Source of the DNA: an uncultured Bacteroidales bacterium
Lineage (GTDB): Bacteria > Bacteroidota > Bacteroidia > Bacteroidales > JAGOPY01
NCBI GenBank assembly: GCA_964619555.1
Contig: CAZUDV010000006.1
Span: 178,394-242,393 of the forward strand
Reading direction: 5' to 3'
Length of the DNA stretch: 64,000 bases
Shown here: positions 22,976 through 63,014 of the stretch, piece by piece
Layout of the letters: every line of letters starts with the position of its first letter
Numbering within the stretch: position 1 is the first letter of the stretch
Notes under the pieces: generated by a model
Database searches by the model: none
The model's input: the letters and a program-made list of their open reading frames with translations, nothing else
What the model was told of the DNA's origin: nothing
Translations under genes and position numbers: made by a program

Positions 22976-23031
22976 GAAGTTAGAAGTCAGGTGAAAGGAG
23001 TCGGAAGTCGGAAATCGTAAGTCAGACGTCG
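22976..23031. repeat. heptanucleotide tandem array, 8 units, consensus GAAGTCG
   Basis: Units read in order: gaagtta, gaagtca, ggtgaaa, ggagtcg, gaagtcg, gaaatcg, taagtca, gacgtcg. Confidence 0.8.
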
Positions 23032-23050
23032 AAAAAAAGAAATTTTAAGA

Positions 23051-23099
23051 TGCCAACCGTCAACTGCGAACTGCCAACTGCCAACTGCCAACTGTAACA
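23051..23099. repeat. heptanucleotide tandem array, 7 units, consensus TGCCAAC
   Basis: Units read in order: tgccaac, cgtcaac, tgcgaac, tgccaac, tgccaac, tgccaac, tgtaaca. Confidence 0.8.
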
Positions 23100-23153
23100 T
23101 TTCCCTCCCTCGTCCGTCTAATGCATAAATACTGGAACAGAAAATCTGCCTGA

Positions 23154-23639
23154 ATGACCGTAACAGAGTACAACCAGTGTGTTGACAGCCATTCCGACAA
23201 TGTGTACCGCTTCATCCTTAAAAATATCAGGGATGAACAGGCAGCCATGGATATTGTGCAGGATGCGTTCGAGAAACTATGGTTGAAATTCAGGGAGGTC
23301 AGCTACCAGAAGGCTAAATCGTACCTCTTTACCACTGCCTACCATCGTATGATCGATCATGTCAGGAAGGAAAAGAGAATGGGAAGGCTGTCCGAAGATT
23401 ATGATGTGGCGGAACAGGGAGACAGACCATATAATGATGTGAAAAAAGTCCTGGACGAAGCATTGCAAAGACTGCCGGAAATCCAGCGGTCAGTAGTGCT
23501 GCTCAGGGATTACGAAGGTTATTCGTACGAGGAGATCGGTCACATCACAAAGCTGAGCGAATCGCAGGTTAAAGTTTATATTTTCAGGGCAAGGGTAGCA
23601 TTGAAAAACTACCTGGTCAGCATTGACAATCTGGTTTGA
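23154..23639 (+). CDS. ECF-type RNA polymerase sigma-70 factor
   Basis: 161 aa. Region 2 (VYRFILKNIRDEQAAMDIVQDAFEKLW) and region 4 (LRDYEGYSYEEIGHITKLSESQVKVYIFRAR). Confidence 0.9.
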   Translation: MTVTEYNQCVDSHSDNVYRFILKNIRDEQAAMDIVQDAFEKLWLKFREVSYQKAKSYLFTTAYHRMIDHVRKEKRMGRLSEDYDVAEQGDRPYNDVKKVLDEALQRLPEIQRSVVLLRDYEGYSYEEIGHITKLSESQVKVYIFRARVALKNYLVSIDNLV

Positions 23640-23640
23640 A

Positions 23641-24720
23641 ATGGGCATCAATAAAGAAAATTACGAACAGTTCTTCCTGGACTACCTGGAAGGCAACCTC
23701 TCCCCGGAAGAGAAGCAGGAACTGGCTGATTTTATCATAGCCCACCCGGAACTGAGATCCTTGCTGGACGACTTCGATGGCACACCTATCCCACCCGACA
23801 GGATCACCTACCTTAAAAAGGAACGATTAAAAAAAAATATCCATAACTCTGTACATATAAATGAAGGTAATGCGGAAGCATGGATGATCGCGTCGATTGA
23901 AGGTAATCTGAATGCTACCGAAGCATTTGAGCTCTCTGAATTTATTTCTAAAAATCCTGTCTTTGAACGGGAATTGGAATTATACCGGAAAACCAGGATC
24001 GTTCCCGATGAAACCATCACTTTCCCGTTAAAAAGTTCGTTAAAAAAGAAGGCCCCTTACATCCTTCTGAAACGCAGCGGCTGGATCTCGGCATTAGTAG
24101 CTGCAGTAATCATCCTGTTTTTTGGCATACGCTTCTTTCTCCTCCGGCCCCCATCACCTGATGCCTTGCCTGAAATGACCATTGCATCGGGTTCGGCAGG
24201 TATTGATCAAACCATCCCGACCACTGCCTCTGAATCTTTACCGGAAAATCCTAAGAAAATACTGGCAGCTTCGCATGCAGCCGTTCCGGAACAGCCGGTT
24301 ACTGGAGCAGATACTGCAACAGCGACCTCGGAACGAACCGGTGTATCCAGAATAAAAGACCGGCATTTTGTCTTATCAGTCAATACCTCTTCAACTACGA
24401 CATCTTATCTTTCGCTCAAGAATGAAACAGAGGCCCCGAAAATAAAAGTTGAAAAAAATCAACCTCTCATTTCCAAAGTGACCGAAAATATATTCGCTCA
24501 GGCCGGAAAAAGTATCAGGGAAAGAACCCGTTTGGACAATATCCGCAACCAGAGACTGAATTTCTGGGGCGTTCTGTCATCAGGAATCAAAGGCTACAAT
24601 ACCATTACCGACCGCAATGTGGAACTTTTTGTCCGCCAGGATGAGAAAGGGAAAGTTTCATCTTATACACTCGTGGAACATGACCGGCTTATCATGACCA
24701 GGGATTTAAATAAAAACTGA
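23641..24720 (+). CDS. putative anti-sigma factor or membrane protein partnered with the ECF sigma
   Basis: ATG 23641 lies 1 nt after the sigma stop. The N-terminal YLEGNLSPEEKQEL motif is duplicated (IEGNLNATEAFEL). One TM helix (WISALVAAVIILFFGIRFFLL). The assignment rests on position only. Confidence 0.5.
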   Translation: MGINKENYEQFFLDYLEGNLSPEEKQELADFIIAHPELRSLLDDFDGTPIPPDRITYLKKERLKKNIHNSVHINEGNAEAWMIASIEGNLNATEAFELSEFISKNPVFERELELYRKTRIVPDETITFPLKSSLKKKAPYILLKRSGWISALVAAVIILFFGIRFFLLRPPSPDALPEMTIASGSAGIDQTIPTTASESLPENPKKILAASHAAVPEQPVTGADTATATSERTGVSRIKDRHFVLSVNTSSTTTSYLSLKNETEAPKIKVEKNQPLISKVTENIFAQAGKSIRERTRLDNIRNQRLNFWGVLSSGIKGYNTITDRNVELFVRQDEKGKVSSYTLVEHDRLIMTRDLNKN

Positions 24721-24783
24721 GTCCTGTAACATTTCCACGAGGCTTACCGTCACACGCACAGAAACCATTTAAAACAAACTGAT

Positions 24784-26343
24784 ATGAAACGGATTATCTT
24801 GCAATCTGCATGGCTGATCATGGCTGTTCTCATGATCCTGGTCCTGGACCACAACGTGGCGGCACAAAATGAAATTGTCCGCGAAACCCGGGATCTCCCG
24901 GTATTTGACCAAATTAATGCGGGAGGAGCGTTTGAAATAAAACTGACCCAGGGTACACCCCAGAATGTAGAGGTTGAAGCCAAGCAAAAAGTGATCGGCG
25001 ACATCCAGACCGAAGTTAAGGACGGCAACCTGGTCATCTCTTCCAAAGGCATTAACAACAACACACCTTTGAATATTTTTATCACGGTAGCCGAATTGAA
25101 AAAGCTGGAAATTCATGGGGCGGCTGAATTAGATGGCACGAATACTATTAAATCGGCCGACCTGGAAATAGTTGTTTCCGGCGCTGCAGAAGCAGACCTG
25201 GAGGTGGATGCAGCCAACCTGATCACCGATGTTTCGGGGGCAGCAGAATTGGATCTTTCAGGCAAGACCATCAACCACACGACCAATGTAAGCGGTGCGG
25301 CTTCATTAAATGCCGGCAATCTTAATGTCAAATATACCCAGGCTGATGTCAGCGGCGCGGCATCAGCCCATATCAATACGGAAAATCTGGTCGGAAATAC
25401 CAGCGGCGCCGGGGAAATTTATGATAAGGACAGGATGGTGGAAAAGTCGACGTGGGAAGAATCTCCCGGGGTATACATCGATACGGACAGGGACAGCGAC
25501 ACGACCTATATAAGGATTCCCGGAGCCGCGGTAGTGGTTACGGAAGGTGACGACTCCGTGACAGTGCGTGTTGGGAACAGGGTACTGGTGGTGGATGACG
25601 ACGGGGATGTGGAGTTCAAACGCTGTGCCATGCCCAGGTTCAACGGCCATTGGGCTGGTTTTGACATCGGTTTTAACGGATATGTGAATTCCGATTTCAA
25701 TATGAGTTTCCCGAAGGAGTATGAGTACATGGATTTGAGAATGGAAAAGTCGATTGCGACAAACCTGAATTTTTTCGAACAGAATATCCGTCTTGCCAAA
25801 AATCAGCATTGGGGCATCGTGACCGGGCTGGGGCTGGGCTTCAACGATTACCGGTTCCTGCACCAGACCAGGCTGAGCATGGATTCTTCATCGTTACAGG
25901 GATATATCGATGAAGACATAAGCATCCGGAAAACAAAACTTTCGGCTATGTACCTGAATTTGCCGATCCTGTTTGAATTTCAGACTGCTCCGGCTTATCA
26001 CAAAAACGGTTTCCATATCAATGCCGGGGTGATCATCGGGGCCAGGCTGTCTTCACATACCAAGATCTATTACAATGAGTTGAACAAAGAATTCAATGTG
26101 ACCCGGTACAACCCTGAGACCGGACAATATGAGGTTGCCTTTACGGCGATTTCCCCGGATGATCCCAAATCCAAACATTATGACGACTGGTTCATGCAAC
26201 CATTCAAATTCGATGCCTCGGTAAGGATTGGCTGGAATTTCCTGAATTTCTGGGCGAATTATTCATTGAACACGATGTTCAGGAAGGATAAAGGCCCGGA
26301 ACTTTATCCCTGGTCGGCCGGGATTACACTGGTTTGCTTCTAA
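24784..26343 (+). CDS. DUF2807 (head GIN / putative adhesin beta-helix) protein fused to a C-terminal outer-membrane beta-barrel-like domain
   Basis: 519 aa with a signal peptide. Contains LPVFDQINAGGAFEIKLTQG ... DGNLVISSKG and repeated SGAAExD rungs. The C-terminal half has alternating aromatic strands and ends in F. Confidence 0.7.
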   Translation: MKRIILQSAWLIMAVLMILVLDHNVAAQNEIVRETRDLPVFDQINAGGAFEIKLTQGTPQNVEVEAKQKVIGDIQTEVKDGNLVISSKGINNNTPLNIFITVAELKKLEIHGAAELDGTNTIKSADLEIVVSGAAEADLEVDAANLITDVSGAAELDLSGKTINHTTNVSGAASLNAGNLNVKYTQADVSGAASAHINTENLVGNTSGAGEIYDKDRMVEKSTWEESPGVYIDTDRDSDTTYIRIPGAAVVVTEGDDSVTVRVGNRVLVVDDDGDVEFKRCAMPRFNGHWAGFDIGFNGYVNSDFNMSFPKEYEYMDLRMEKSIATNLNFFEQNIRLAKNQHWGIVTGLGLGFNDYRFLHQTRLSMDSSSLQGYIDEDISIRKTKLSAMYLNLPILFEFQTAPAYHKNGFHINAGVIIGARLSSHTKIYYNELNKEFNVTRYNPETGQYEVAFTAISPDDPKSKHYDDWFMQPFKFDASVRIGWNFLNFWANYSLNTMFRKDKGPELYPWSAGITLVCF

Positions 26344-26395
26344 AGAGTGGTTAGTGTTTAGTGTTTAGTGGTTAGTGGTTAGTGTTTGGTGGTTT
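26344..26395. repeat. left arm of an inverted repeat: AGAGTG plus 7 heptamers (GTGKTTA)
   Basis: Units read in order: gtggtta, gtgttta, gtgttta, gtggtta, gtggtta, gtgtttg, gtggttt. The arm starts 1 nt after the upstream stop codon. Confidence 0.85.
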
Positions 26396-26487
26396 TTGAA
26401 AAAAAATTATTACTTTTACCAGCGAAAAAAAGATTATTGTAATGCGTTATAAAACAATAATTTAACAACAAATTGAACAAAAACAAC

Positions 26488-26534
26488 CCTAACCACTAAC
26501 CACTAACCACTAACCACTAACCACTAAACACTCT
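26488..26534. repeat. right arm of the inverted repeat: heptamers (ACTAACC) plus CACTCT
   Basis: Reads cctaacc, then actaacc x4, then actaaac, then actct. It is the reverse complement of the left arm apart from a few G/T unit variants, and ends 7 nt before the yebC ATG. Confidence 0.85.
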
Positions 26535-26541
26535 TCAGCAT

Positions 26542-27288
26542 ATGTCCGGTCACAATAAATGGTCCACGATCAAGCACAAAAAAGGGGCTGCGGATGCAAA
26601 GCGGTCCAAGATCTTTTCGAAAATCGTCAAAGAAATCCAGGTAGCTGTAAGAGAAGGTGGGGCCGACCCGGACGGCAATCCCAGGTTGCGACTGGCCATA
26701 CAGAATGCCAGGGGGGTCTCCATGCCCAAGGATAATATCGAGCGGGCCATCAAGGGCAGCAAGGATAAGGAAGCCAGTAGCCTCCTGGAGTTGACCTATG
26801 AGGGGTATCTTCCAAATGCAGTGGCTGTTTTTATCGAATGTACCACCGATAACCAGCAGCGAACCGTCAGCGTGATCCGTTCCATCTTCAATAAGTACAA
26901 CGGCAATTTAGGGACGAATGGCTCTCTCAGCTTCCTTTTCGATCGTAAAGGGGTATTTTCGATCCCAAAAGAGAATTACAATGCCGATGAGCACGAACTG
27001 GAACTGATTGATGCGGGGGCGGAGGATATCCAGGAAGAAGACGGTTATATCTCGATCACTACTGCCATGGAGGATTTCGGCAAGATGCAGAAGAAGCTCG
27101 AAGAACTTCAGGTAGTGGCTGAGAATGCAAGCCTGCAGAGAATTCCCAGGGATTATAAGAAGCTGGATCTCGATGATTCAAGAAAGATCATGAAGATGAT
27201 AGAAACGTTTGAGGATGAGGATGACGTGCAAAATGTCTATCACAACCTCGACATTCCGGACGAACTTTATGATGAAATGGAAGACTAA
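26542..27288 (+). CDS. yebC: YebC/PmpR family DNA-binding transcriptional regulator
   Basis: 248 aa. N-terminus MSGHNKWSTIKHKKGAADAKRSKIFSK. Confidence 0.9.
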   Translation: MSGHNKWSTIKHKKGAADAKRSKIFSKIVKEIQVAVREGGADPDGNPRLRLAIQNARGVSMPKDNIERAIKGSKDKEASSLLELTYEGYLPNAVAVFIECTTDNQQRTVSVIRSIFNKYNGNLGTNGSLSFLFDRKGVFSIPKENYNADEHELELIDAGAEDIQEEDGYISITTAMEDFGKMQKKLEELQVVAENASLQRIPRDYKKLDLDDSRKIMKMIETFEDEDDVQNVYHNLDIPDELYDEMED

Positions 27289-28771
27289 CCTATCTTCCTT
27301 TGGGCGAAATTACTCCTTTGCCCTGTTATTATTGGCCTTATTAAGTGCACACCTGCCTTTCCTCTCTGCTGATCCCGATCTCAATATTTCATTCAGCCGT
27401 GGCCCGTTCACCGATGAAGGACTTAATACTGTTCAGGTCCGCAACTGGATCAATCATGGCGAGCTGGACCTGGCTGAGTGTGACAACCTTTTGAAAACAC
27501 CACTTTTCGGGCTTTCTCTGATACTTCCTTATAAAGTTTTCGGCACCAGCCACCTGGTTTCCCGCCTTCATGTTCTGCTGTTGCTGTTGCTGACTCTGTT
27601 TTTGATCGGAAAGGATCCAAAACATAAAATTACCGTCGGAGTACTTATCCTGATCTCCTTCTTTCAATACCAGGTTTTCCATTTCTCTCATTTCAGCCTG
27701 GCTGAAATACTCTCATCAGCAGCCGTGTTGCTTTGCATACATTTTCTGGCCAGGTCTGCCGACATTCAGTACAATGCACGCCTGCGCCGCAACAATGCCA
27801 TCCTTTCAGCTGTATTTTTATCCCTGTCGTATTTTTTCAAGATCCAGTTTATTTACCTGGTTCTTTTGCTTCCAATCGTCCATTTGGGGATTTTGAGCCA
27901 GAAACTGCCTCTCTCCAGGAAATCCTTCATCCGACAGGGATTTTACAGCAGTGCCACATTACTTTTTTTCCTTATGATCTATTTGTTTGGGTGGTATCTC
28001 CCAAACAAGGATCTGTACGACCATATGATGTCCGGTCAATCCGGCGAATTCACAATTTCAAATAAAGTACTCGAATACCTGGAATTTAATCTCTCCAATT
28101 TCATTTTCACCGGATGGTTCCTGGCATTCATCATCCTGTTCATTTTGGCTGCCGGAACTGGTTTTTATCTTCTCAGAAAAAATCCTTCATCCCGATTTCC
28201 CGTTCTCTTTATCGCTTCTTTTGTTTGGTTTCTCCTGGAAACCCATAAGTTACTGATGGTTTACCTGCCCACCCGGTACCGGATCAGCCTGTATATTTCC
28301 GTTGGGCTCCTTATCAGTACGGTAATCGGGGAAATTATAGTCAAGAAAAGAAATCGCAATACCAAAGGCTTCCCGGGGTGGATCCATCCGGTTTCCCTTA
28401 TCGCAGCCGCTATTCTGATCAGCATAAACATCCTGAATTATTCCCGGAGTTTTTACGGCAGATCATTTAACATCCGGGATGCCAACCAATACCTTTCTGC
28501 GACGGTTAAACCGGAGGATGTCGTCCTCGGCTCCTGGGCTCCTTCCCTGACCTGGCAGGCAAAAGCCAAAGCAATTCCGGTTTGGAATAATTTTCTGAAC
28601 TATCAAGATCCCGTTAATAGTTATAAACCCCGGGTAATCATTTCCGAACCCGATGAACAGGATTCCGAACAAGCATACAAAAGCCAGAATATCAGCCTTA
28701 TGCAATTATCCGATTCATCCCGGACGGTCTCAATCGGTCAATGGCAAGTGACTATTTATTGGTTGAATTGA
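27269..28771 (+). CDS. polytopic membrane protein, ArnT/PMT-like GT-C glycosyltransferase candidate
   Basis: About 12 hydrophobic helices. An early loop FTDEGLNTVQVRNW carries an acidic DE pair as in GT-C enzymes. The start at ATG 27269/27272 overlaps the yebC end. The upstream ATG 27209 was rejected. Confidence 0.5.
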   Translation: MMKWKTNLSSFGRNYSFALLLLALLSAHLPFLSADPDLNISFSRGPFTDEGLNTVQVRNWINHGELDLAECDNLLKTPLFGLSLILPYKVFGTSHLVSRLHVLLLLLLTLFLIGKDPKHKITVGVLILISFFQYQVFHFSHFSLAEILSSAAVLLCIHFLARSADIQYNARLRRNNAILSAVFLSLSYFFKIQFIYLVLLLPIVHLGILSQKLPLSRKSFIRQGFYSSATLLFFLMIYLFGWYLPNKDLYDHMMSGQSGEFTISNKVLEYLEFNLSNFIFTGWFLAFIILFILAAGTGFYLLRKNPSSRFPVLFIASFVWFLLETHKLLMVYLPTRYRISLYISVGLLISTVIGEIIVKKRNRNTKGFPGWIHPVSLIAAAILISINILNYSRSFYGRSFNIRDANQYLSATVKPEDVVLGSWAPSLTWQAKAKAIPVWNNFLNYQDPVNSYKPRVIISEPDEQDSEQAYKSQNISLMQLSDSSRTVSIGQWQVTIYWLN

Positions 28772-29062
28772 GCCTGGTTAACCATGGCCATTTTTAGGCT
28801 TTTTAAAAGCATCCTGGGAACTCATCCCAATCCACATGGTAATAAGTGAATTTAAGATTATAAATCACTATTTAAATTCTTTTTAAATTACTTGACTCTT
28901 AATTCATATAGTTTATAAACAATTATTTATCTTATTGTATATCAATATTATACTATATAATTGAAGGATTTGAAGAAAGCCCTTCCGGTTTTGAAAATTC
29001 AAAAAAAATTCTATCTTCGCCGCCGATTCATTTCTTGTTAATCCTTTAACACTCAATAAAGA

Positions 29063-30349
29063 ATGAAGAGAATCCTTACCAGTTTATTGACCGCTATTCT
29101 TCCAATATTAATATATTCACAGGACGAACCGGCTTTCGGAATTAAATTCTCCGGCTTTGTCAAGTCTGACATCATCTGGGATTCCAGGCAAACAGTTGAC
29201 CTGCGCGAAGGGCATTTCCTGCTGTTTCCCAAACCGGTAGTGGAAGATAAGGATGGTAATGATATCAATGCCAGGGCCAGCTTTAACTTTCTGAGCATCC
29301 AAAGCAGGATCAGAGGGGATATTAAAGGGCCTGACGCTTTGGGAGCTAAAACCTCAGGGGCTATTGAAGCTGAGTTCTTTGGAACTTCCGATGCCGATAT
29401 GAACGGATTCCGGCTGCGTCATGCCTATGTCAAACTCAACTGGAAAACCACTGAACTCATGTTAGGACAGATGTGGCATCCCATGTTCATCACTTCTAGT
29501 TACCCCGAAGTCATTTCATTCAATACAGGGGCCCCGTTCACCGTATTTTCAAGAAATCCTCAGATTCGTATTACCCAGGATATCAAGGGTTTCCGCATTA
29601 TTGCCACGGCTTTGTCACAAATCGATTTTAAAAGTCCCGGTCCGGATGGCGTGAGTTCCAAATACATTCGGAATTCCGCCATCCCTTCTTTGAACCTGAA
29701 CCTGGAATACTCCAGAAAGAACACCGAAACTGGCCGTGAAGTCCTTTTCGGCATTGCCGGAAATTTCAAAAGACTCATTCCCCGTCTTGTTTCGGATAGT
29801 GGTTATAAAACCACCGAAGGCATCAATTCCATGCTGGGTATGGCGTATATGAAATTCGGCTTCCCGAAATTCGTCATTAAAGCCGCGGGATTCTACGGTC
29901 AGAACACTTATGATTACACGATGCTGGGCGGCTATTGCACAGATGCGGTGGGACCTGCTGAACAGGGTTTTGTTAAGTACGTGAATGTCAATACGATGTC
30001 AGTATGGACTGATCTTATGACCACAGGGAAGAAAATGCAGGCCGGTCTGTTTATTGGTTATTCGAAAAATTACGGCATCAATGAAAATGACCTTATCACG
30101 AATTCTGCCACCGGGCCGTTCTATTCCAGGGGAAAGGACGTTGCCGGCAAAGGATTCGAAAATGATGATATCGGGTATATGTACCGGATCTCCCCGCGTT
30201 TCATATACAATGCCGGAAAACTAAGAATTGCCCCGGAAATTGAATATACGGTAGCCGGATATGGCAACGCAGATGCAAAGGGACTGGTCGAAGATGCCGA
30301 ACCAGTCGGTAATTTCCGTTTCCTGGTCGGGATCTTTTATTTCTTTTAA
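29063..30349 (+). CDS. outer-membrane beta-barrel porin-like protein
   Basis: 428 aa. Signal peptide MKRILTSLLTAILPILIYSQ, alternating beta-strand pattern, and C-terminus FLVGIFYFF. Confidence 0.6.
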   Translation: MKRILTSLLTAILPILIYSQDEPAFGIKFSGFVKSDIIWDSRQTVDLREGHFLLFPKPVVEDKDGNDINARASFNFLSIQSRIRGDIKGPDALGAKTSGAIEAEFFGTSDADMNGFRLRHAYVKLNWKTTELMLGQMWHPMFITSSYPEVISFNTGAPFTVFSRNPQIRITQDIKGFRIIATALSQIDFKSPGPDGVSSKYIRNSAIPSLNLNLEYSRKNTETGREVLFGIAGNFKRLIPRLVSDSGYKTTEGINSMLGMAYMKFGFPKFVIKAAGFYGQNTYDYTMLGGYCTDAVGPAEQGFVKYVNVNTMSVWTDLMTTGKKMQAGLFIGYSKNYGINENDLITNSATGPFYSRGKDVAGKGFENDDIGYMYRISPRFIYNAGKLRIAPEIEYTVAGYGNADAKGLVEDAEPVGNFRFLVGIFYFF

Positions 30350-30397
30350 TATGAACCCAATAACAATTAAATTATAACTAACTAATTCATAAGTATT

Positions 30398-32311: not shown

Positions 32312-32320
32312 TACATTCTG

Positions 32321-32357
32321 CCGGCAGCACCGCCTTTTCAAAAGGCAGTGCTGCCGG
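32321..32357 (+). terminator. stem-loop after acs (terminator or attenuator)
   Basis: CCGGCAGCAC ... GTGCTGCCGG, a 10-bp perfect stem plus 3 inner pairs around a TTTTCAAAA loop, followed by GTTTG. Confidence 0.45.
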
Positions 32358-32364
32358 GTTTGAA

Positions 32365-33666: not shown

Positions 33667-33694
33667 CAAGTATTCCGAGACCATATAGAGATTA

Positions 33695-33743
33695 AAGAAT
33701 CCGGGCCCTGGTCATTAATATCTGACCATTTACCCGGATTCTT
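33695..33743 (+). terminator. compound stem-loop after the MFS gene
   Basis: Outer stem AAGAATCCGGG/CCCGGATTCTT and inner stem TGGTCA/TGACCA. Confidence 0.5.
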
Positions 33744-33845
33744 CATTCTTCGGCTTCTGACACCCGGTTCCTGTCTCCCTATCCCCCTCTCCGGCATACC
33801 TATTCTAAATTCTATCCTTCCTGTTAATTTTTTCACAAAATATCA

Positions 33846-33853
33846 TACCTTTG
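33846..33853 (+). promoter_or_regulatory. -7 box TACCTTTG for the pat-like gene
   Basis: Exact TAnnTTTG match, 35 nt upstream of ATG 33889. Confidence 0.4.
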
Positions 33854-33888
33854 TCATCGTTTTAAAAATCGAATAAATCTGTCTATAT

Positions 33889-49123: not shown

Positions 49124-49153
49124 ATCTTGCAGTTTTATTCCGTTAAATTGAAA

Positions 49154-51710: not shown

Positions 51711-51860
51711 ATAAAAAACTATGTATATTTTTGAAATGCAAGTTTACGGCAATTTTTGTTTCTATGCAATGAGAACCCATAAAATCATAAGGACTGGAGT
51801 GATTTTTGTGTACACTTTCATTTCTTTGCGAAATTTGCATCGGATTAACCCGTCACGAAA

Positions 51861-53150: not shown

Positions 53151-53187
53151 ACAGGCGAACGGGGAAAGAGGGATCTGTTTCCGAGTG

Positions 53188-54429: not shown

Positions 54430-54434
54430 CGGTA

Positions 54435-54442
54435 CAAAGATA
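54435..54442 (-). promoter_or_regulatory. -7 box (TATCTTTG on the minus strand) just upstream of the ABC permease
   Basis: Exact match only 5 nt from the ATG. This implies a leaderless mRNA or a downstream true start. Confidence 0.35.
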
Positions 54443-54494
54443 ATGAAACAGGCTGAAAAAAACTGATGCCCGAAAATGTCCGACTAGAATCCGT

Positions 54495-55442: not shown

Positions 55443-56752
55443 AATGATCTATTAAAAGATTTTTCCATTATTTCTTCCAGCACCTTTCTCCAACCGGCGT
55501 ACTGGCCTTTTTCACTGAGGGCATAATTATGCCAAATCCCAATGGTCTCTCCACCGAACCGGTAACTATATTCAAGGAATCCTTGCATTTCACTCATAGC
55601 AGCTCCCGGTGAAAGCTTTTTATGGTCAATCATGGCAGAATCCATAAAGGTAAACGGATGCAAGGTAAGGTCTTTGATCTCATCCTTTTCAATATCATAA
55701 AAACGAAACGGGTTGGCTGTCCCGGCCCTATAACCATTGGTCGTCGAATAACCAAGGGAATAATCATCGGTAATACCCGATTCGGTTAGGAGCCGGAAGG
55801 ATTCGGGAAATTTCAGCCGGAGGAAATGGAACCGATTTTTCCGGACCGGCTTTCCGATTATGTTCTCCAGTCTGCATTTTTCTTTTAAATATAGCTCCTT
55901 GTCAAGGAATGAAAAATAAGACGGATGAATGCCTATTTCAAAATTCCGTGAAAGGTATTCGATTATTTTTCTGAATCGCGGATTCCTGTAATCTGTATTA
56001 CGATCGAAGCGGCTGAAATCTCCCAACAGGATGAAATAAACCGAATTTAGGCCGTATTGAGTGGCCAGTTCCACCTGCCAGTCAAAGTTATCATAAGGAT
56101 CTGCTAAATTTCCGGTCAAGACATTCAGTCGTTCAAGCATTTCTTTAAATTGGCCGGTCAGCAGCAGTTTTGTCCATGCGGCAGCAGCCCTGGTTAAACC
56201 TTTGGCCAGATGGGCATAAGCGATATCTACGTCGAATGTCGGAATAAACCGGGAGATTGATTCGCGGAACTTCAAACCAGGAAATTGCCTGATCAGTAAT
56301 GCCTTAAATTTATCGGCCAGGATATTGACCAGTGGCATACCCAGGAATCCTCCCCGGTAGGCAATACTTTCCGAGGCCGGGAACCTGCTGTGTTCATCGT
56401 GATGGATTGGCAGATACTCTTCATACCTGGTTATCAGGTAAAAAGCGATGGCAAATGGATCATAGGGCAATTCAGATGGTTCGTCTACACGGAAAAAAAC
56501 CGGTAATCCCTGCCACTCAAAGATGACTATCTTATAATTCTTTAATCCTTTATCCGATAAAACCGGATGCGCTGCAAAATGCACAGTATCTGCCAAGGCA
56601 GTTTTTCCGTAACTGATTTTAGGTCCCTGAAAATCTATAAAATACCGGACTTCATCTGTCATGGAATAACTCAATCCTAATACCTCCCTGAAAAAAAAAT
56701 CGAAGATATATTGATGCCGGGGGGTGATATTTTCAATGTATACCAGGAGCAC
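55439..56752 (-). CDS. polysaccharide deacetylase (NodB)-like protein with an N-terminal extension (operon gene B)
   Basis: 437 aa. Contains FIPTFDVDIAYAH (TFDxD-like motif 1), FEIGIHPSY and NRFHFLRL. Overlaps gene A as ATGA. Confidence 0.5.
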   Translation of the reverse strand: MLLVYIENITPRHQYIFDFFFREVLGLSYSMTDEVRYFIDFQGPKISYGKTALADTVHFAAHPVLSDKGLKNYKIVIFEWQGLPVFFRVDEPSELPYDPFAIAFYLITRYEEYLPIHHDEHSRFPASESIAYRGGFLGMPLVNILADKFKALLIRQFPGLKFRESISRFIPTFDVDIAYAHLAKGLTRAAAAWTKLLLTGQFKEMLERLNVLTGNLADPYDNFDWQVELATQYGLNSVYFILLGDFSRFDRNTDYRNPRFRKIIEYLSRNFEIGIHPSYFSFLDKELYLKEKCRLENIIGKPVRKNRFHFLRLKFPESFRLLTESGITDDYSLGYSTTNGYRAGTANPFRFYDIEKDEIKDLTLHPFTFMDSAMIDHKKLSPGAAMSEMQGFLEYSYRFGGETIGIWHNYALSEKGQYAGWRKVLEEIMEKSFNRSL

Positions 56753-57683
56753 GACTAATTCTGTCAGATTTTGTATAAAAGCCTATTTGACCCAACAACT
56801 GCTTGGTCATATCACGAAAGTACAAATTGCTGCTGAAACAGGCTATATTCCGGGCATTGTTCTGTGTGATTTCCGATTTAACGGCTTCAAACGACTTTGC
56901 AATATCCACAATCGTGCACGGAATTCCATTTATCCGTGTTTTGACCGCGATACCTGAATTCACCAGGGCCATTTCAAGACCTGACATCTCCATGGTCCAA
57001 CCCATATTTTTTTTGTAGAGCAAATATTCTTCCCATTCCCTTTCGTCCAGTTGTAATATCCTGTATCTTCTATATTTACGATATTTGACTTTACATAATT
57101 CTTCAACGTAATGGACAAACGTGAAGGCATTGCTCAGAGGCGTACCGAGGATCAGCATCATTGCTTGATGATTGTGCAAAAAAGCAAAGGGGGAATCCGG
57201 GCCGAAGGAACTTTTATTTCTAAGGTTGCAAAGAGTGCCGGTTTCTTTTCCACTTACCAGGAATGAATGAAGGGGATGCCTGGTTCGCCGGAAATCATTC
57301 ATTTTCATGGCTTCAACAGCAAGGGCCCCGGTAATGGGAAGGGTCCTGGACCGGCTGAATTGATCCTTGTCCTTCAGGTTGTGATTAAAGGCGGAAATGA
57401 CAAGTGTGCCTTCATCTCCCAGATGATCCAGAAAACTCCCGATAAATTTCCGGGTGTCGAATTCCTTCTCCTTTTTACGGGCGTTTAAGGCCAGCCCGGT
57501 CAGGTCTGCAGCAAGCCACAGAACCTGTCCTTTCCCGATGCCAATAGCTCCGGCAATTTTTTGATAAGGGATATAGTCAGGATTTTTCAATCGGGAGTAA
57601 ATAAAACCAGTATCAATCGATAAATTTTCTGAATTGCTGTAATTCTTCGCTATATCCGAGATTCTTCCAGAATGCCATGGCAT
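56733..57683 (-). CDS. AAC(3)/Antibiotic_NAT family N-acetyltransferase-like protein (operon gene C)
   Basis: Contains DEGTLVISAFN, RTRHPLHSF, GPDSPFAFL and LILGTPLSNAFTFVHYVEE, which follow the AAC(3) family motif order. The first in-frame ATG that limits overlap is 57683. The ORF-track start 57785 lies deep inside the GNAT gene. Confidence 0.6.
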   Translation of the reverse strand: MPWHSGRISDIAKNYSNSENLSIDTGFIYSRLKNPDYIPYQKIAGAIGIGKGQVLWLAADLTGLALNARKKEKEFDTRKFIGSFLDHLGDEGTLVISAFNHNLKDKDQFSRSRTLPITGALAVEAMKMNDFRRTRHPLHSFLVSGKETGTLCNLRNKSSFGPDSPFAFLHNHQAMMLILGTPLSNAFTFVHYVEELCKVKYRKYRRYRILQLDEREWEEYLLYKKNMGWTMEMSGLEMALVNSGIAVKTRINGIPCTIVDIAKSFEAVKSEITQNNARNIACFSSNLYFRDMTKQLLGQIGFYTKSDRISRAPGIH

Positions 57684-58116
57684 CCGGATTTCCGGTGATA
57701 ACCTGCAATTCAACCGAATGGACTTTCTTTGACCGAAACCAGTCCTCCAGCATCGCGACCAATTTAGCTCCCACATGTTTGTCACGAAATTCTTTAGCCA
57801 CGAATATATGGGTTATCATTCCGACCGGTTTTCCTCCCAGATAATCCGGCAGGAATTTGATCATCCCGTGCGCAAAGGCGACCACCTGGTCACCTGATTT
57901 AGCAACAGCCAACCGGCCGAATTTCTCCGCCGTATTCCGTGCCGCGGACATCCACTTCATGGATCCGCTGCTTTCCAGCGGGAGCATGATTCCCAGATTA
58001 TGCATCCAGGCATACATATTGCGGAAGAGATTTTCAACCTGTTCCCACTCTTCCTGTTGCTGGTCCTGTAATATCAAATATTCAAGCTCTGTCATGCTTT
58101 GCTTTTTCAATTGCAT
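57613..58116 (-). CDS. GNAT family N-acetyltransferase (operon gene D)
   Basis: 167 aa. Motif A region HIFVAKEFRDKHVGAKLVAMLEDW and the C-terminus AFWKNLGY. An alternative start is ATG 58095. Confidence 0.8.
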   Translation of the reverse strand: MQLKKQSMTELEYLILQDQQQEEWEQVENLFRNMYAWMHNLGIMLPLESSGSMKWMSAARNTAEKFGRLAVAKSGDQVVAFAHGMIKFLPDYLGGKPVGMITHIFVAKEFRDKHVGAKLVAMLEDWFRSKKVHSVELQVITGNPDAMAFWKNLGYSEELQQFRKFID

Positions 58117-58348
58117 TCATCAGCCCTTCGATGGTCGTAAGATCACCCTTTTCAATGGCTGATTCAAAGTCTATCTCACAATTTGCCGCCTTTTCAAAAG
58201 CTGAAACTATTTCGACGAATTCCAGGGAATTGACCAGTCCGCTTTTGACCAGGTCGAAATGCCCCTTCAGTTCATCAGGCCGGATACTGAAGCGTTCGAG
58301 TTTTCCGGCAAGCAAATCAAACAAGATTTTTCTGGTATTATTTTCCAT
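58082..58348 (-). CDS. acyl/peptidyl carrier protein (DltC-like) (operon gene E)
   Basis: 88 aa. Four-helix-sized with the phosphopantetheine-site context SGLVNSLEFVEIV. Confidence 0.75.
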   Translation of the reverse strand: MENNTRKILFDLLAGKLERFSIRPDELKGHFDLVKSGLVNSLEFVEIVSAFEKAANCEIDFESAIEKGDLTTIEGLMNAIEKAKHDRA

Positions 58349-59822
58349 TCAGATATTCTTTCTTTAAAACGGATTGATCAATTTTTCCATTGAGATTCAG
58401 GGGGAATTCATCAACAAAAATAATCTTTCCGGGCATCATATACCAGGGCAGGTTTTCCCGGCAATGAGCAGCAATTTCAAAACTTTCCGGAATCGAACCT
58501 TTTTCAGGTAAAACGAAAGCAATCAACGGATTGCCCGGATAGGACAGATCATCGTGCAAGACTACGGTCTGAGCAACAGAATTGAGATTGTTGATGGTGT
58601 ACTCAATTTCCTTCAGGTTCACCCGGTATCCGGAGACTTTCACTTCCGAATCCAGGCGACCGGTATAGAACAGATCGCCATCCTTATCGGCGTAGACGAT
58701 ATCGCCTGTTTTGTAATACAATGCATTAGATTGATTATCAAAGAAGAAAGCTTGTTTATCCGCTTCCGGATTTTCAAAATAAGAGGAGATAACCTGTATT
58801 CCTTTCAGGCAGAGTTCACCCGGGGCAGGGATGCTGATTTCATCATCAACCTGTGAAGTCATTAAAATTTTATAGTCGTTGTTCTCGAATATTTTTCCAA
58901 TCGATACAATTCCAAGATCCTGCTTCGCATCCCTCATTTCCACAGGCAATTCGTAGTGAGAGATGGCGATGGTTGCTTCGGTAGGGCCATAGAGGTTAAT
59001 GATCCGGGAACCGGGCACGGCATTTTGCCAGTCGTAAGCAGTTCTGGCATAAAGGGGTTCTCCGCAAAAAAAACTATAGCGGATAGAAGGGAATGCATTT
59101 TCTTTCAGCATTCTCATCCGGCCCATAAGGTTTATGACAGATGGAACTGAAAACCAGACTGTTGGTTTCTTTTCGCGAATAAATTTCACCAAATGGAATG
59201 AGGTTGCATCTTCCGGTACACAAAGACAGGCGCCGGCTGACCAGCATAAGAACAGATCGTGCACGCTCAGGTCGAATGTTAGATCGAAGTTCTGAGTAAA
59301 CCGGTCATCGGGATTAAAGTCGTAAGCAGCCAGCAAGTATTCCAGGTATGCCGAAACATTTCTTTGCGATATCTGCACTCCTTTTGGCAGGCCGGTAGTA
59401 CCTGAAGTAAACAGCAGGTAAGCCGGATCAGGTGGCCTGGCAACCTGTGAGGTCACCTGTGAGGTCACCTGTGAGGTCAGTTTCCCCTCCCTGATCAAAG
59501 TACTTACCCCGGCTTTTTCCATCATATAGTGATTTCTTGCGTCCGGGAAATTCGGATTGAGGGGCAGGTAACCTTTACCGGACATGAGGATGCCCAGTAT
59601 GGCAGCATAACACTCCATCGATTTATCTGCCCAAACCGCTGCAAAGGGCCGGTCATCCGAGGAACTCCGGATCAGATCTGCAAATTGGCCGGCCGATTCG
59701 GCCAATTGACCGTAGGTCAGTATGACAGGTCCCTTTTCGATGGCTGGCCGGTCGGGGAACTTTGCGGCGGATTCCAGGAATCTTTGCGCCATGGTTTTGT
59801 ATGGACTATAGGCATCCTGCAT
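58338..59822 (-). CDS. stand-alone adenylation enzyme (ANL superfamily, DltA-like amino acid--carrier protein ligase) (operon gene F)
   Basis: Start at ATG 59822, 2 nt after the upstream stop. Core motifs LFTSGTTGLPKG, YGPTEATI, YKTGDIV, GRLDSEVKVSGYRVNLKEIE and NGKID. Confidence 0.9.
   Translation of the reverse strand: MQDAYSPYKTMAQRFLESAAKFPDRPAIEKGPVILTYGQLAESAGQFADLIRSSSDDRPFAAVWADKSMECYAAILGILMSGKGYLPLNPNFPDARNHYMMEKAGVSTLIREGKLTSQVTSQVTSQVARPPDPAYLLFTSGTTGLPKGVQISQRNVSAYLEYLLAAYDFNPDDRFTQNFDLTFDLSVHDLFLCWSAGACLCVPEDATSFHLVKFIREKKPTVWFSVPSVINLMGRMRMLKENAFPSIRYSFFCGEPLYARTAYDWQNAVPGSRIINLYGPTEATIAISHYELPVEMRDAKQDLGIVSIGKIFENNDYKILMTSQVDDEISIPAPGELCLKGIQVISSYFENPEADKQAFFFDNQSNALYYKTGDIVYADKDGDLFYTGRLDSEVKVSGYRVNLKEIEYTINNLNSVAQTVVLHDDLSYPGNPLIAFVLPEKGSIPESFEIAAHCRENLPWYMMPGKIIFVDEFPLNLNGKIDQSVLKKEYLNGK
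59444..59479. repeat. perfect 12-bp tandem repeat x3 inside the adenylation gene
   Basis: cctgtgaggtca x3 on the plus strand. On the coding strand it encodes (TSQV)3 immediately N-terminal to the LFTSGTTGLPKG motif. Confidence 0.9.
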
Positions 59823-59824
59823 GA

Positions 59825-61018
59825 TCAGCCCTCTTCTATCATTAAAAGTGCATCGCAAAAGAATTTGGTTGCCCAGTTGGGGAAAGCAAACGGCTCATAT
59901 CGCCCCCAAATGGGGTAAGAACCCGGAATGGCACCGCCGGTCATTACCCGTTCCGTGGTTTCACGGGATTGTATCGAGATCAGGTAATTGATCATACGAT
60001 TTGATGCTACTCCGAAATCATCCCCGAATTCTTGTTGACAGAGTTTCTTCCAAACGATTGCCATCTGGGCACCGCCGGTGCAGATAAAAAACTCCCTGCC
60101 ATGCCAACTGCGGTCATAACGGCCATTGAGGCTCCCATACGAAAGGAAGATATCTTTCAATCGGCCTGCTCCTGTGGCTGCTGCCTGTATATATCGGCCA
60201 TCATCCAGAAGAACTGAGCAATCTATCAAACCATCCAGCGTATAGGCGATTGTGTGAAGGATCGGCTTGTCATTCCTTTTTATAGTATTATCGCAATCTT
60301 CAAACCAGCCATTGGGCAACATTTTCCGGTTCACTACCCAATCCAGGTTCCTGATGGCAGCTTCCCGGAAGATCGCATTACCGGACAACTGCGACAATTC
60401 AATCAGGGGCGCATCTACAAAAGTGTCATATACCCTGGCCTGTTCCATCAGTGCATGCTGTTTCCAGTATCCATCCGGATGCTGGATCCGGATCAACCAG
60501 TGACCCGCTTTTTCAGCCGATTCCAGGTACTTTTTATCTCCGGAGTATTTATAGGCGGCAATCATACCCCTGATGACCTGACCTGTATTGAAAACGATCT
60601 CCCGTTTGTTTTCATTAATCCTTCCTCCCTGCCACCCCCCGCTTTCCTTCTGAATCTCCAGCAGAAAATCTGCAGCTTTCACAGCAGCATCAATGGCAGG
60701 AGGAAATTGATACTTCGCATGATAATTGATCAGGGTGGGTAAGATATAACCGGTAGTTTCCGGATAGGAAGAAGACCAGCCATTAGCCAGGTGATAGGAA
60801 CAAAAACCACTGTCAATCGTCGCTTTCTGTGCTGTTATCAGCCAATTTATCCCGGCTTCAAGGGCATTTCTTACCTCCCATCCTGGCAAATCCGCACGGT
60901 CAGCCTTTCTGGCTCCAAATAAATAATACCGCCTGAAGTCGGACCATAATAACCGACGTTCAGGACGTAAAGCCGTTTTCAGAAAATAAATGGCGTATAA
61001 CTTTAAGCTTTGAAGCAT
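59825..61018 (-). CDS. alpha/alpha-toroid protein, terpene cyclase/prenyltransferase-repeat-like (operon gene G)
   Basis: 397 aa. Contains SYPETTGYILPTL, LEIQKESGGWQGG and IQHPDGYW, which resemble the QxxxGGW-type repeats of alpha/alpha-barrel families. Function unknown. Confidence 0.45.
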   Translation of the reverse strand: MLQSLKLYAIYFLKTALRPERRLLWSDFRRYYLFGARKADRADLPGWEVRNALEAGINWLITAQKATIDSGFCSYHLANGWSSSYPETTGYILPTLINYHAKYQFPPAIDAAVKAADFLLEIQKESGGWQGGRINENKREIVFNTGQVIRGMIAAYKYSGDKKYLESAEKAGHWLIRIQHPDGYWKQHALMEQARVYDTFVDAPLIELSQLSGNAIFREAAIRNLDWVVNRKMLPNGWFEDCDNTIKRNDKPILHTIAYTLDGLIDCSVLLDDGRYIQAAATGAGRLKDIFLSYGSLNGRYDRSWHGREFFICTGGAQMAIVWKKLCQQEFGDDFGVASNRMINYLISIQSRETTERVMTGGAIPGSYPIWGRYEPFAFPNWATKFFCDALLMIEEG

Positions 61019-61063
61019 TGGGGCCCAATGGTTTCAGCATCCCATAAATTTGGAATACCGAAA

Positions 61064-61071
61064 CAAAGATA
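61064..61071 (-). promoter_or_regulatory. -7 box (TATCTTTG on the minus strand) for the seven-gene operon
   Basis: Exact TAnnTTTG match, 45 nt upstream of ATG 61018, in the region shared divergently with dnaX. Confidence 0.45.
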
Positions 61072-61098
61072 CTTAAGTCTTTTAAAAGGAAATCTTAC

Positions 61099-61106
61099 TA
61101 TTTTTG
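61099..61106 (+). promoter_or_regulatory. -7 box TATTTTTG for dnaX
   Basis: Exact match, 26 nt upstream of ATG 61133. Confidence 0.45.
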
Positions 61107-61132
61107 AGCGGCAGGAAAGCCCTGAAAAATCT

Positions 61133-62917
61133 ATGGATAATTTTGTCGTATCAGCCAGGAAATACCGGCCTTCCACATTCGACAGCGTGGTTGGCCAGGA
61201 ATCGATCACATCAACCTTAAAAAATGCCATCCGGAACAAACAACTGGCACAGGCTTTCCTTTTTTGCGGCCCCAGGGGTGTCGGAAAAACCACGTGTGCC
61301 CGGATCCTGGCGAAGACCATTAACTGCTTCAATCCGGTCAACCAGGTCGAGGCCTGCAATACCTGCGAGTCTTGCCTGTCATTCAACCGGTCGGCTTCTT
61401 TCAATATCCATGAACTCGATGCCGCCTCAAATAATTCGGTGGAAGATATCCGCAACCTGGTGGAACAGGTCCGGATCCCGCCTCAGGTTGGCAGGTACAA
61501 GGTCTATATCATCGATGAGGTCCATATGCTATCAGCAGCGGCGTTTAACGCCTTCCTGAAAACTCTGGAAGAGCCTCCCGATTATGCCAAATTCATCCTG
61601 GCCACAACTGAAAAGCATAAAATTATCCCAACCATTCTTTCCCGGTGCCAGATATTTGATTTCCGCAGGATAGTCGTTAAGGACATTGCTGACCACCTGG
61701 CTTATGTTGCTAAGAATGAAGGAGTAACGGTTGAGGAGGAAGCCCTTCATGTCATAGCACAGAAGGCAGATGGCGCTATGCGGGATGCGCTTTCCTTTTT
61801 TGACCAGCTGGTTAGTTTTGCCGGAGACAACCTGACCTATGCCATGGTCACGGAACATCTCAACATTCTGGACCATACTTATTATTTCCGGATCATGGAC
61901 CAGGTGCTCAACCAGGATACGACAGGTATTTTGTTGACCATCAACGAGATTATTGACAGGGGTTTCGACGGGCAGCATTTCCTGATCGGTTTCGGAGAAC
62001 ATCTGAGGAGCCTTTTGGTCAGTAAAGATCCGGCAACGGTCAAACTGATGGAAGTGAGCCAGAACCTGCAGGAAAAATACCTGCAACAGGCTGCCCGCTG
62101 CTCCCCGGCCCTCCTGCTCAAAGCCCTGGAGATCCATAACCAGCACGACCAGGGCTATCGCACGAGTAACAACAAACGTCTGCAACTGGAGTTATGTCTG
62201 CTTCAGATCTGCACAGCCGCTGCCGTTACCCAACCTCTGGCAGAAGAAAAAAAAAACTCTCTGATTCCGCCTGAAGGCGGTCAGCAGTCGGCGGTCGGCG
62301 GTCGGCAGTCGGCGGTCGGCGGTCAGCAGTCGGCGGTCGGCGGTCAGCAGTCGGCGGTCGGCAGTCGGCAGTCGGCGGTCGGCGGTCAGCAGTCGGAGTC
62401 TGGTAGTTTTCCAACTGTCAAAAAGACGCAGAATGAAGTATCAGCGTCAACTCCCGGGACTTCCAGAACCATTTCGATCAAATTGGAAAATCATCGCCCC
62501 AGACAGTCAAATGGAAATGCTGAACCTGATAATCCCACGATTGTTCTGCAAAAGGAATTTACCCAGGAAAAACTGGATAAAGTATGGACCTATTACACGG
62601 AAAGCATTGCTGGTCAATATCCCAATTTTTACAGTATTTTATCCACCCGGAAACCAGTTTTGAAAGACAATTTCGTGATCGAACTGCTATTGGATAACCG
62701 GGCACAGGAGATGACTTTACGTGATAGAAAAAGCGATCTTATCGAGTTCCTTCGAAGTGAACTGCAAAATCAAAAAATCATACTGGATTCGATCCTCGTG
62801 GAGAGCGATTCACCATCAAAACCTTACACTCCCGAGGAAAAATTCAAAGCCATGGCCGAAAAGAATCCCTCTCTTAATTCCCTTAAGGATAAACTGGACC
62901 TGGAACTGGAGCTATAG
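61133..62917 (+). CDS. dnaX: DNA polymerase III subunit tau (and possibly gamma)
   Basis: Start moved to ATG 61133, giving MDNFVVSARKYRPSTFDSVVGQ. Contains GPRGVGKTT (P-loop), the zinc module CNTCESC, IIDEVHML and SRCQIF. The C-terminal half is low-complexity. Confidence 0.9.
   Translation: MDNFVVSARKYRPSTFDSVVGQESITSTLKNAIRNKQLAQAFLFCGPRGVGKTTCARILAKTINCFNPVNQVEACNTCESCLSFNRSASFNIHELDAASNNSVEDIRNLVEQVRIPPQVGRYKVYIIDEVHMLSAAAFNAFLKTLEEPPDYAKFILATTEKHKIIPTILSRCQIFDFRRIVVKDIADHLAYVAKNEGVTVEEEALHVIAQKADGAMRDALSFFDQLVSFAGDNLTYAMVTEHLNILDHTYYFRIMDQVLNQDTTGILLTINEIIDRGFDGQHFLIGFGEHLRSLLVSKDPATVKLMEVSQNLQEKYLQQAARCSPALLLKALEIHNQHDQGYRTSNNKRLQLELCLLQICTAAAVTQPLAEEKKNSLIPPEGGQQSAVGGRQSAVGGQQSAVGGQQSAVGSRQSAVGGQQSESGSFPTVKKTQNEVSASTPGTSRTISIKLENHRPRQSNGNAEPDNPTIVLQKEFTQEKLDKVWTYYTESIAGQYPNFYSILSTRKPVLKDNFVIELLLDNRAQEMTLRDRKSDLIEFLRSELQNQKIILDSILVESDSPSKPYTPEEKFKAMAEKNPSLNSLKDKLDLELEL
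62247..62256 (+). other. A10 homopolymer in dnaX: candidate transcriptional-slippage or frameshift site
   Basis: The sequence gaa gaA AAA AAA AAc lies at about codon 372-375 of 594. The -1 frame stops at 62272-62274 and the +1 frame at 62262-62264. Confidence 0.3.
62277..62402. repeat. in-frame heptanucleotide array, 18 units, consensus GCRGTCR, inside dnaX
   Basis: gcggtca, gcagtcg, gcggtcg ... for 126 bp (42 codons). It encodes six 7-aa units (GGQQSAV / GGRQSAV). Confidence 0.85.
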
Positions 62918-62953
62918 CCCGGATTGGAACAGTTAAATCCTTTCAACTGTTAA

Positions 62954-63014
62954 CCTGAAAACTCAACTTTGAATCCTAAAACTCAACTTTGAACCTTGAA
63001 CTTTGAATTTTGAA
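62954..63014. repeat. imperfect direct repeats ending in YYTTGAA heptamers
   Basis: cctgaaaactcaactttgaa, then cctaaaactcaactttgaa, then ccttgaa, ctttgaa, ttttgaa. Located between convergent dnaX and the methyltransferase gene. Confidence 0.6.

Follow-up and report, generated by a model that had tools for sequence, protein, structure and literature searches.

Tandem heptanucleotides have several precedents in bacteria. According to the accounts given in PMC4679880 and PMC4692102, heptamers are the most abundant class of long simple sequence repeats (SSRs) in most prokaryotic genomes, and polymerase slippage was proposed to explain the excess (Mrazek 2007). One heptamer, TAACTGA, is repeated in Beggiatoaceae, cyanobacteria and five Bacteroidetes (MacGregor 2015, PMC4679880). 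In those Bacteroidetes, TAACTGA and other heptamer direct repeats often lie by start or stop codons, and contigs of relatives end in the repeats (PMC4679880). Xanthomonas genomes hold 70-75 inverted pairs of heptamer arrays each, able to form stem-loops (Rehm 2015, PMC4692102); the type of array (single or inverted pair) is kept between species, and lengths and sequences vary in the same gene context (PMC4692102). Short tandemly repeated repetitive (STRR) heptanucleotides are cited for Calothrix PCC 7601 (PMC4692102). Here we describe period-7 arrays in a 64,000-nt stretch (the window) of an uncultured Bacteroidales bacterium (assembly GCA_964619555.1, contig CAZUDV010000006.1, positions 178,394 to 242,393, forward strand). 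Each array site has its own unit, and one pair of arrays forms a long inverted repeat in front of yebC. The arrays are probably heptanucleotide SSRs generated by slippage, persisting at permissive sites at gene boundaries and in a protein linker, and the lineage is an uncultured Bacteroidales group unusually prone to such repeats.

Heptanucleotide arrays and their period

Arrays were called with Tandem Repeats Finder and the sequences were also inspected directly; positions are those of the window, and loci from other contigs carry L numbers. Six period-7 arrays were found, of 4.6-17.3 units each, five of them intergenic and one in frame in the linker of DnaX:

22999-23031, no strand assigned: AGTCGGA x4.7, 73% matches, the Tandem Repeats Finder core of a degenerate GAAGTCG, or (GAAGTYR)n, tract at 22976-23031.
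23051-23094, plus strand: TGCCAAC (AACTGCC) x6.3, from Tandem Repeats Finder and direct reading.
26346-26394, plus strand: AGTGGTT (with the variant AGTGTTT) x7.0, the core of arm 1 (26340-26397) of the inverted repeat at yebC.
26485-26532, plus strand: AACCACT x7.0, the core of arm 2 and the reverse complement of the AGTGGTT array.
62276-62396, plus strand: GGCGGTC (RGCRGTC) x17.3, equal to a 21-nt unit x5.8, this superperiod having 94% matches.
62985-63016, no strand assigned: AACTTTG x4.6, overlapping a 20-nt repeat at 62943-62996, the whole feature spanning 62943-63016.

All six have the unit size (5-11 bp) and the beyond-chance length of long SSRs. An independent scan of the window over periods 2-15 returned five arrays of period 7 and zero or one of every other period, with ~0.07 arrays per period expected from block shuffles. 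Pfam assignments of the flanking genes place the arrays between the divergent GT2 glycosyltransferase and ECF (extracytoplasmic function) sigma genes, just past the stop codon of the DUF2807/OMP gene, which encodes a beta-barrel protein, just before the start of the yebC gene that follows it, in the DnaX linker, and in the spacer between dnaX and a convergent methyltransferase gene. An initial annotation of the window, made from its letters alone, had reported period-7 arrays at gene boundaries or in a protein linker, and both the arrays and their placement are upheld here.

The arrays were also recovered from other data. Short-read contigs from other samples in Logan terminate inside the arrays and contain the same units. 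The intergenic region with arrays at yebC is identical between an NCBI contig from a metagenome-assembled genome (MAG; L004) and a JGI metagenome contig (L094), the records from NCBI (L109) and JGI (L110) list the same arrays around dnaX of that species, and the AACTTTG array is unchanged across three samples. Given the same units at the Logan contig ends and the identical reading of independent NCBI and JGI assemblies, the arrays are not assembly artefacts. The window sequence itself lies within the 96-kb JGI metagenome contig Ga0130016_10000395 (3300009868). The nearest genomes are uncultured Bacteroidales MAGs, with the best YebC match 77% identical (CAYUQP01), and the relatives include Lentimicrobium-like MAGs.

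Each unit belongs to one place. Within the window, tandem dimers of every unit are confined to that unit's own site, arrays of these units are restricted to the same sites across 76 kb of the window contig, and single copies occur at background frequency. Tandem dimers of the STRR1-3 units and of TAACTGA, and arrays of GGGAATC, were absent from the window and from every locus examined; single copies of TAACTGA number four in the window, against 7.8 expected. No G3 tract occurs in the window units GAAGTCG, AACTGCC, AGTGGTT, RGCRGTC and AACTTTG. Since dimers of every unit are found only at its own site and singles only at background, the arrays do not represent the spread of one repeat, as the initial annotation had already argued from a shared period combined with different sequences. 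An AGT/ACT core common to all units was also considered and rejected. It is present in all five units of the window, but in only about one third of ~20 arrays from relatives, near the chance estimate of ~20%.

The preference for period 7 extends beyond the window. The focal clade was defined as the window contig plus loci sharing the synteny of the window, 199 kb in total (76 kb of window contig and ~120 kb from relatives). Loci of relatives were retrieved through their yebC or dnaX neighbours, and both ascertained sites were therefore dropped for an unbiased count. The numbers of arrays were as follows:

Focal clade, all arrays, 199 kb: period 7, 35; period 8, 7; period 6, 0.
Focal clade, ascertained sites removed, 199 kb: period 7, 15; period 8, 6; period 6, 0.
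Other Bacteroidota, 805 kb: period 7, 18; period 8, 10; period 6, 4.
Outgroups, 418 kb: period 7, 1; period 8, 0; period 6, 2.

With the ascertained sites removed, the focal clade has an excess of period 7 over periods 6 and 8 (binomial test, p = 4e-4). A further 12.3 kb of recovered flank of the window contig contained zero additional period-7 arrays, leaving six in 76 kb. The period bias is real and is strongest in this lineage, weaker in other Bacteroidota and absent in the outgroups. The excess of period 7 over 6 and 8, which the initial annotation had proposed as a check, is thus present both in the window (5 vs 0-1) and in ~200 kb of the focal clade. Its suggestion of a period-specific generator stands in part: the counts and the site-own units favour a size-biased process, but period 8 is a clear second class. 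The size preference is for 7, then 8, far above all others, rather than for exactly 7.

Two further features of the window lie apart from these arrays. The sole other strong array is a perfect 12-nt repeat, ACCTGTGAGGTC x3.1 (59443-59479), which is coding and lies in frame within a minus-strand AMP-binding enzyme gene (58338-59858). A protein with a CHU_C domain (11169-13871) is called as 900 aa on the source contig (L107) but as 870 aa in a different sample (Logan contig L108), a difference that could be start-site choice or genuine length variation.

Array sites in relatives

For each of the window's four array sites, relatives also carry arrays in the corresponding position; the copy number differs, and in many cases so does the unit. 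The site between the GT2 and ECF sigma genes contains two features in addition to the TGCCAAC array:

22976-23031, no strand assigned: degenerate array (GAAGTYR)n, 37-92 nt ahead of where the minus-strand GT2 gene starts.
23093-23119, plus strand: TGTAAC-N16-CGTCT, a motif resembling an ECF-type promoter, 35 nt ahead of the ATG (23154) of the ECF sigma gene.

The TGCCAAC array adjoins the -35-like box of the sigma gene on its upstream side. ECF promoters share an AAC/CGT consensus, and from its sequence TGTAAC-N16-CGTCT would be such a promoter, probably the autoregulated one of an operon of sigma, putative anti-sigma and DUF2807-OMP genes. The motif is kept in the window, L004, L092 and L097, although the adjoining arrays differ: the window has (AACTGCC) x6.3 in this position, L092 and L097 have (GAACTGC), x7 and x3 respectively, and L004 has (GCCTCCM)n. 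L092 and L097 have near-identical flanks, yet an adjoining 8-mer array is x6.8 in the first and x3.2 in the second. The possibility that arrays 22976-23031 and 23051-23094 form a hairpin was rejected; their units are complementary at 5 of 7 positions, but the fold scores z = +1.5 relative to shuffles.

In DnaX, the (RGCRGTC) array encodes (QQSAVGG)n in the linker after domain III, three heptamers filling each 21 nt. Relatives at 70-82% identity have 3 to ~10 peptide repeats in this linker, and more distant relatives have none. At the DNA level the array is x17.3 in the window, x24.4 in L111 and x27 in L109. The L109 unit is a different one, CAGAAGN, encoding AEDRSQK, and a 21-nt superperiod is common to all three. 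In the spacer between dnaX and the methyltransferase gene, L111 has (NNCAAAG)n and, after it, the inverted partner (ACTTTGC)n; of this pair the window retains the AACTTTG side only. L111 also has an intergenic 41-nt tandem repeat upstream of dnaX (5457-5573, x2.9, 98% matches).

Other genes of relatives contain arrays as well. In L053, (ACTCATC) x4.6 (9850-9881) adds a net 21 nt in frame, relative to L047 and L052, close to the 3′ end of the gene that precedes yebC; we take this gene to be tRNA methyltransferase-like. A gene of the Antibiotic_NAT family has period-8 arrays, TTCTCCCC x7.8 in L109 (5738-5799) and TCTCCCTG x16.6 in L111 (1180-1312); its product is 299 aa in L109 and 316 aa in L111, compared with 285 aa on the window contig. 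These period-8 arrays are apparently tolerated frame-cycling insertions.

The most structured site is that of yebC. The GTGKTTA array and its complement, counted as independent in the initial annotation, are the two arms of one conserved inverted repeat:

26340-26397, plus strand: arm 1, G/T-rich (AGTGGTT/AGTGTTT) x7, starting 2 nt past the stop of the DUF2807/OMP gene (24784-26343).
26398-26480, plus strand: spacer or loop, holding a conserved box, TTTTTG-A8-TTAT-TACTTTTAC, with the box at 26410-26419.
26481-26538, plus strand: arm 2, A/C-rich and G-free (AACCACT) x7, ending 4 nt before the yebC ATG at 26542; the Tandem Repeats Finder core ends at 26532.

The 58-nt arms are 84% complementary and span the interval between the upstream stop codon and a point 4 nt short of the ATG. 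For RNA, the predicted fold of the region is -73.1 kcal/mol (z = -9.9). Scanning metagenomes with the protein encoded upstream, together with a genome scan, recovered the paired layout in eight distinct genomes (the window, L104, L100, L004 (= L094), L093, L089, L092/L097 and L095/L096), and a ninth contig terminates within arm 1. In all eight, a G/T-rich array 0-6 nt past the stop, often including the stop codon, is followed by the box TTTSAAAAA...TAnnTTTAC, by 60-100 nt of AT-rich sequence and by a reverse-complement A/C-rich array that ends 4-12 nt before the yebC ATG. Of the array-bearing genomes, 8/8 have the box, which also occurs in array-free relatives (e.g. L009, L011 and L016); the box would be a promoter, presumably that of yebC.

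The arm units vary by genome (AGTGGTT, AGTGCTT, GAGTTTT, GTGATGA, AAGTTTT, AAGTGTT), and the two arms vary together. When duplex energies were calculated for every arm 1 with every arm 2 of the eight genomes, 0/40320 permutations were as good as the within-genome pairing. Within a genome the arms are 85-100% Watson-Crick complementary over 20-68 nt, and where rare variant units are present, their order in one arm mirrors that in the other, as seen best in L100 and at the 3′ hairpin of L004. A G.U wobble excess, as a mark of RNA-level selection on the arms, was looked for and rejected, the mismatches being 8 G.U, 10 A.C and 29 other. With no such excess, selection on an RNA stem and DNA-level homogenisation of the arms are not separated by these data.

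Distant syntenic relatives without arrays have an ordinary terminator hairpin and T-run ahead of the same box. The arrays of the focal clade therefore stand in the place of a terminator, with the presumed promoter in the loop. Of the clade genomes whose region is complete, 10/10 have an A/C/T-rich array just 5′ of the yebC ATG. L090 and L105 are among them, although both are without arm 1 and have a conventional terminator hairpin and inserted sequence there. The sequence in place of arm 1 (L090 2500-2720, L105 380-560) is unrelated and has inverted repeats of its own, e.g. GTCGTCCCTATGGGACTT ... AAGTCCCACAGGGACGAC; it may be a small mobile insertion. In L006, which is array-free, an ordinary terminator stem ~90 nt upstream of yebC (AAAACCACTCA...TGAGTGGTTTT) contains AACCACT and AGTGGTT. 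This may be coincidence, or may hint at arrays growing from a terminator stem. A search of Rfam 15 gave no family at gathering score, only plant miRNA hairpin models at up to 38.8 bits against gathering scores of 80-195, and these sub-threshold matches reflect a generic long hairpin. Several distant relatives also have arrays within 350 nt upstream of yebC, by hand count 2-3 independent events. Tested against intergenic space outside the focal clade, arrays at yebC gave p = 0.58, with a crude open reading frame mask that misclassifies stop-free arrays; yebC is not proposed as a hotspot of such arrays throughout Bacteroidales.

Inverted pairs are not restricted to yebC. L004 has abutting inverted arms past a stop codon that make a 3′-end hairpin, further 3′-end hairpin pairs occur in L111 and L012, and L102 has an inverted pair of period 8. 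The window arrays other than the yebC pair are unpaired. In L097, a 23S_rRNA_IVP gene (a four-helix-bundle, bAvd-like product; 19945-20511) lies between acetyl-CoA synthetase and MFS genes and is bracketed by (CAGAAGA)4 and (TCTTCTG)6. The equivalent position of the window (32321-32357) has only an 18-nt palindromic terminator. The insert looks like a cassette with flanking stems made of arrays, and it recalls rRNA intervening sequences.

Proposed slippage origin and competing explanations

Persistence at a site, copy-number drift, unit turnover and a coding register that preserves the frame have their standard explanation in slippage. The arrays are located where extra sequence is tolerable: past stop codons, ahead of promoters, within 5′ leaders and in the disordered linkers of proteins. 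Length varies between relatives at the same locus (L092 x7 vs L097 x3; dnaX x17.3, x24.4 and x27), and coding arrays vary in a 21-nt (7-aa) register. Persistence with drifting copy number and units, together with the frame register, points to a DNA-level process. In such a process, strand slippage during replication would tandemly duplicate a short local sequence, and the bias towards 7-8 nt would stem from the generating process and not from a common element. In coding DNA only three-unit changes would survive, which would produce the 21-nt register. The likeness of the arms of inverted pairs would be due to DNA-level copying from one to the other, through gene conversion or template switching, to selection for pairing, or to the two combined. 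If transcription read through from the DUF2807/OMP gene, the RNA would form a ~50-bp duplex joining the stop codon of that gene to the sequence immediately 5′ of the yebC start.

Several observations weigh against the slippage explanation. No length variants were seen within the population, where short-read contigs of this species break at the arrays, and two pairs of independent same-species assemblies show zero copy-number difference. The enrichment rests on the 76 kb of window contig and on ~120 kb of relatives near two array-bearing sites. Arrays at the four sites persist although the flanking proteins are only 62-82% identical, and the array 5′ of the yebC ATG is retained in 10/10 genomes; for both, selection is equally possible. 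Moreover, the slippage proposal leaves the preferred size of 7 unexplained.

The strongest competitor is that the arrays are selected cis-regulatory RNA elements and not neutral by-products, which we consider unlikely. A G-poor array 5′ of a start codon would serve as an unstructured leader or as a platform for a protein that binds single strands, e.g. S1 or a cold-shock protein. On read-through transcripts, the mirrored arm at the stop codon ahead of yebC would give a long-range duplex. Through RNase III, this duplex would insulate or process both genes; alternatively, it would couple translation of yebC to termination in the preceding open reading frame. The placement of the arms in eight genomes (0-6 nt from the stop and 4-12 nt from the ATG), the strong predicted folds (z = -9.9 and -6.3) and the arm covariation all fit this reading. 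So do the replacement of an ordinary terminator hairpin in the focal clade, the retention of arm 2 where arm 1 is lost (L090, L105) and the other inverted pairs, which bracket a whole inserted gene (L097) or form 3′-end hairpins (L004, L111, L012). The TAACTGA repeats of Beggiatoaceae likewise lie mostly just upstream of start codons. However, the arm mismatches lack a G.U excess and show nothing specific to RNA-level selection, and if the loop box is the yebC promoter, then yebC's own transcripts are without arm 1. In addition, the remaining window arrays are unpaired, no Rfam family matches, and the enrichment of arrays at yebC is non-significant outside the focal clade under the crude mask. 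That the mirrored yebC stem is functional at all seems improbable to us. The specific proposal, in which it would be a selected long-range RNA/DNA hairpin that joins the upstream stop codon to the start of yebC, encloses the yebC promoter, insulates, processes or translationally couples the two genes and evolves by compensatory turnover of whole units, with terminator- and processing-type stems of the clade made and extended by heptamer slippage, is doubtful.

Arrays might instead act as contingency loci, where gain or loss of units would switch neighbouring genes through frameshift or promoter spacing. Copy number does vary between close relatives and a 7-nt unit would shift the reading frame, but the window's sole coding heptamer array occupies the linker of an essential gene, where a 21-nt register is preserved, the array at the ECF site is upstream of the -35 box and not between -35 and -10, and the remaining arrays are located past stop codons. 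This reading is very unlikely. Still less credence attaches to an invertible promoter switch of the Bacteroides phase-variation type, in which the mirrored arrays would be inverted repeats and the spacer would flip. Inverted repeats of 40-80 nt around a ~90-110 nt spacer with a promoter-like box have the expected look, but the box is next to arm 1, in a single orientation, in all assemblies with both arms. Moreover, no recombinase family was found among the neighbouring products scanned or the genes called around yebC, and the arms, being variable tandem arrays, do not form a fixed site for a recombinase. Finally, that the arrays are remnants or termini of a spread mobile element, similar to a miniature inverted-repeat transposable element or a repetitive extragenic palindrome, is scarcely credible and already largely refuted, for although some pairs are inverted repeats around a segment and the L097 arrays flank an inserted 23S_rRNA_IVP-family gene that is not in the window, each site has a different unit and no flanks in common with other sites, the arrays are orthologously placed across the clade, and no repeated element body was found.

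Comparison with known systems

Taken together, these data add an uncultured Bacteroidales lineage to the bacteria known for accumulating heptanucleotide repeats. The size bias (7, then 8) holds though each locus has its own unit, and a mechanistic cause is therefore favoured over the spread of one element. In practical terms, the arrays break short-read assemblies. They also put frame-cycling peptide repeats into linkers, in DnaX and apparently in tRNA methyltransferase-like and acetyltransferase genes of relatives.

The closest match is the long SSR class of Mrazek, Guo and Shah (2007). As far as that survey is described in the later papers cited above, it shares with the present arrays tandem units beyond chance length, heptamers as the commonest size, many different units per genome and variation between relatives. 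The same accounts place long SSRs mainly outside host-adapted pathogens, with slippage of preferred size proposed as their origin. Relative to that description, the arrays here differ in belonging to an uncultured Bacteroidales lineage, in having period 8 as a clear second class and in their many mirrored pairs.

The STRRs of heterocystous cyanobacteria comprise a small set of units (CCCCAGT, TTGGTCA, CAACAGT) that recur at many dispersed loci. They resemble the present arrays in being 7-nt tandem units that are mostly intergenic and occasionally translated in three frames, whereas here the units are locus-own, arrays of STRR units are absent and the phylum is another one. The TAACTGA system is similar in its intergenic heptamers a few nt before starts or past stops, and in contigs that break in the repeats. 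However, it has one dominant unit genome-wide, for which horizontal spread was proposed, whereas the Bacteroidales units are site-specific and include no TAACTGA arrays. The GGGAATC and GGGGA(T/C)T repeats of Xanthomonas and Nostoc are likewise intergenic heptamers, in frequent inverted pairs kept between relatives. They differ in having a single G-rich unit with G-quadruplex potential, whereas here there are no G3 tracts, units differ by site and the arms are shown to co-vary across eight genomes.

A different kind of likeness is offered by the RNase III stems around rRNA genes and 23S intervening sequences, and by the stems of long-range translational coupling, in which long complementary segments bracket a functional unit. 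The yebC pair and the L097 pair share this arrangement, and the unit bracketed in L097 is itself of the 23S_rRNA_IVP family; the arms here differ in being tandem arrays, whose part in processing or coupling is hypothetical.

The initial annotation knew of no equivalent class in Bacteroidota. Heptamer arrays have been reported in five Bacteroidetes (PMC4679880), and with these and the heptamer SSR class already published, most of the novelty that it saw falls away. Given the precedents in Mrazek 2007, MacGregor 2015 and Rehm 2015, neither the class nor its habit of forming inverted pairs is new. The yebC pair offers a natural system for distinguishing SSRs recruited as evolvable RNA/DNA stems from inverted arrays merely homogenised by template switching. 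What is new compared with the known systems is the lineage, the strictly site-specific units and the covariation of the arms across eight genomes.

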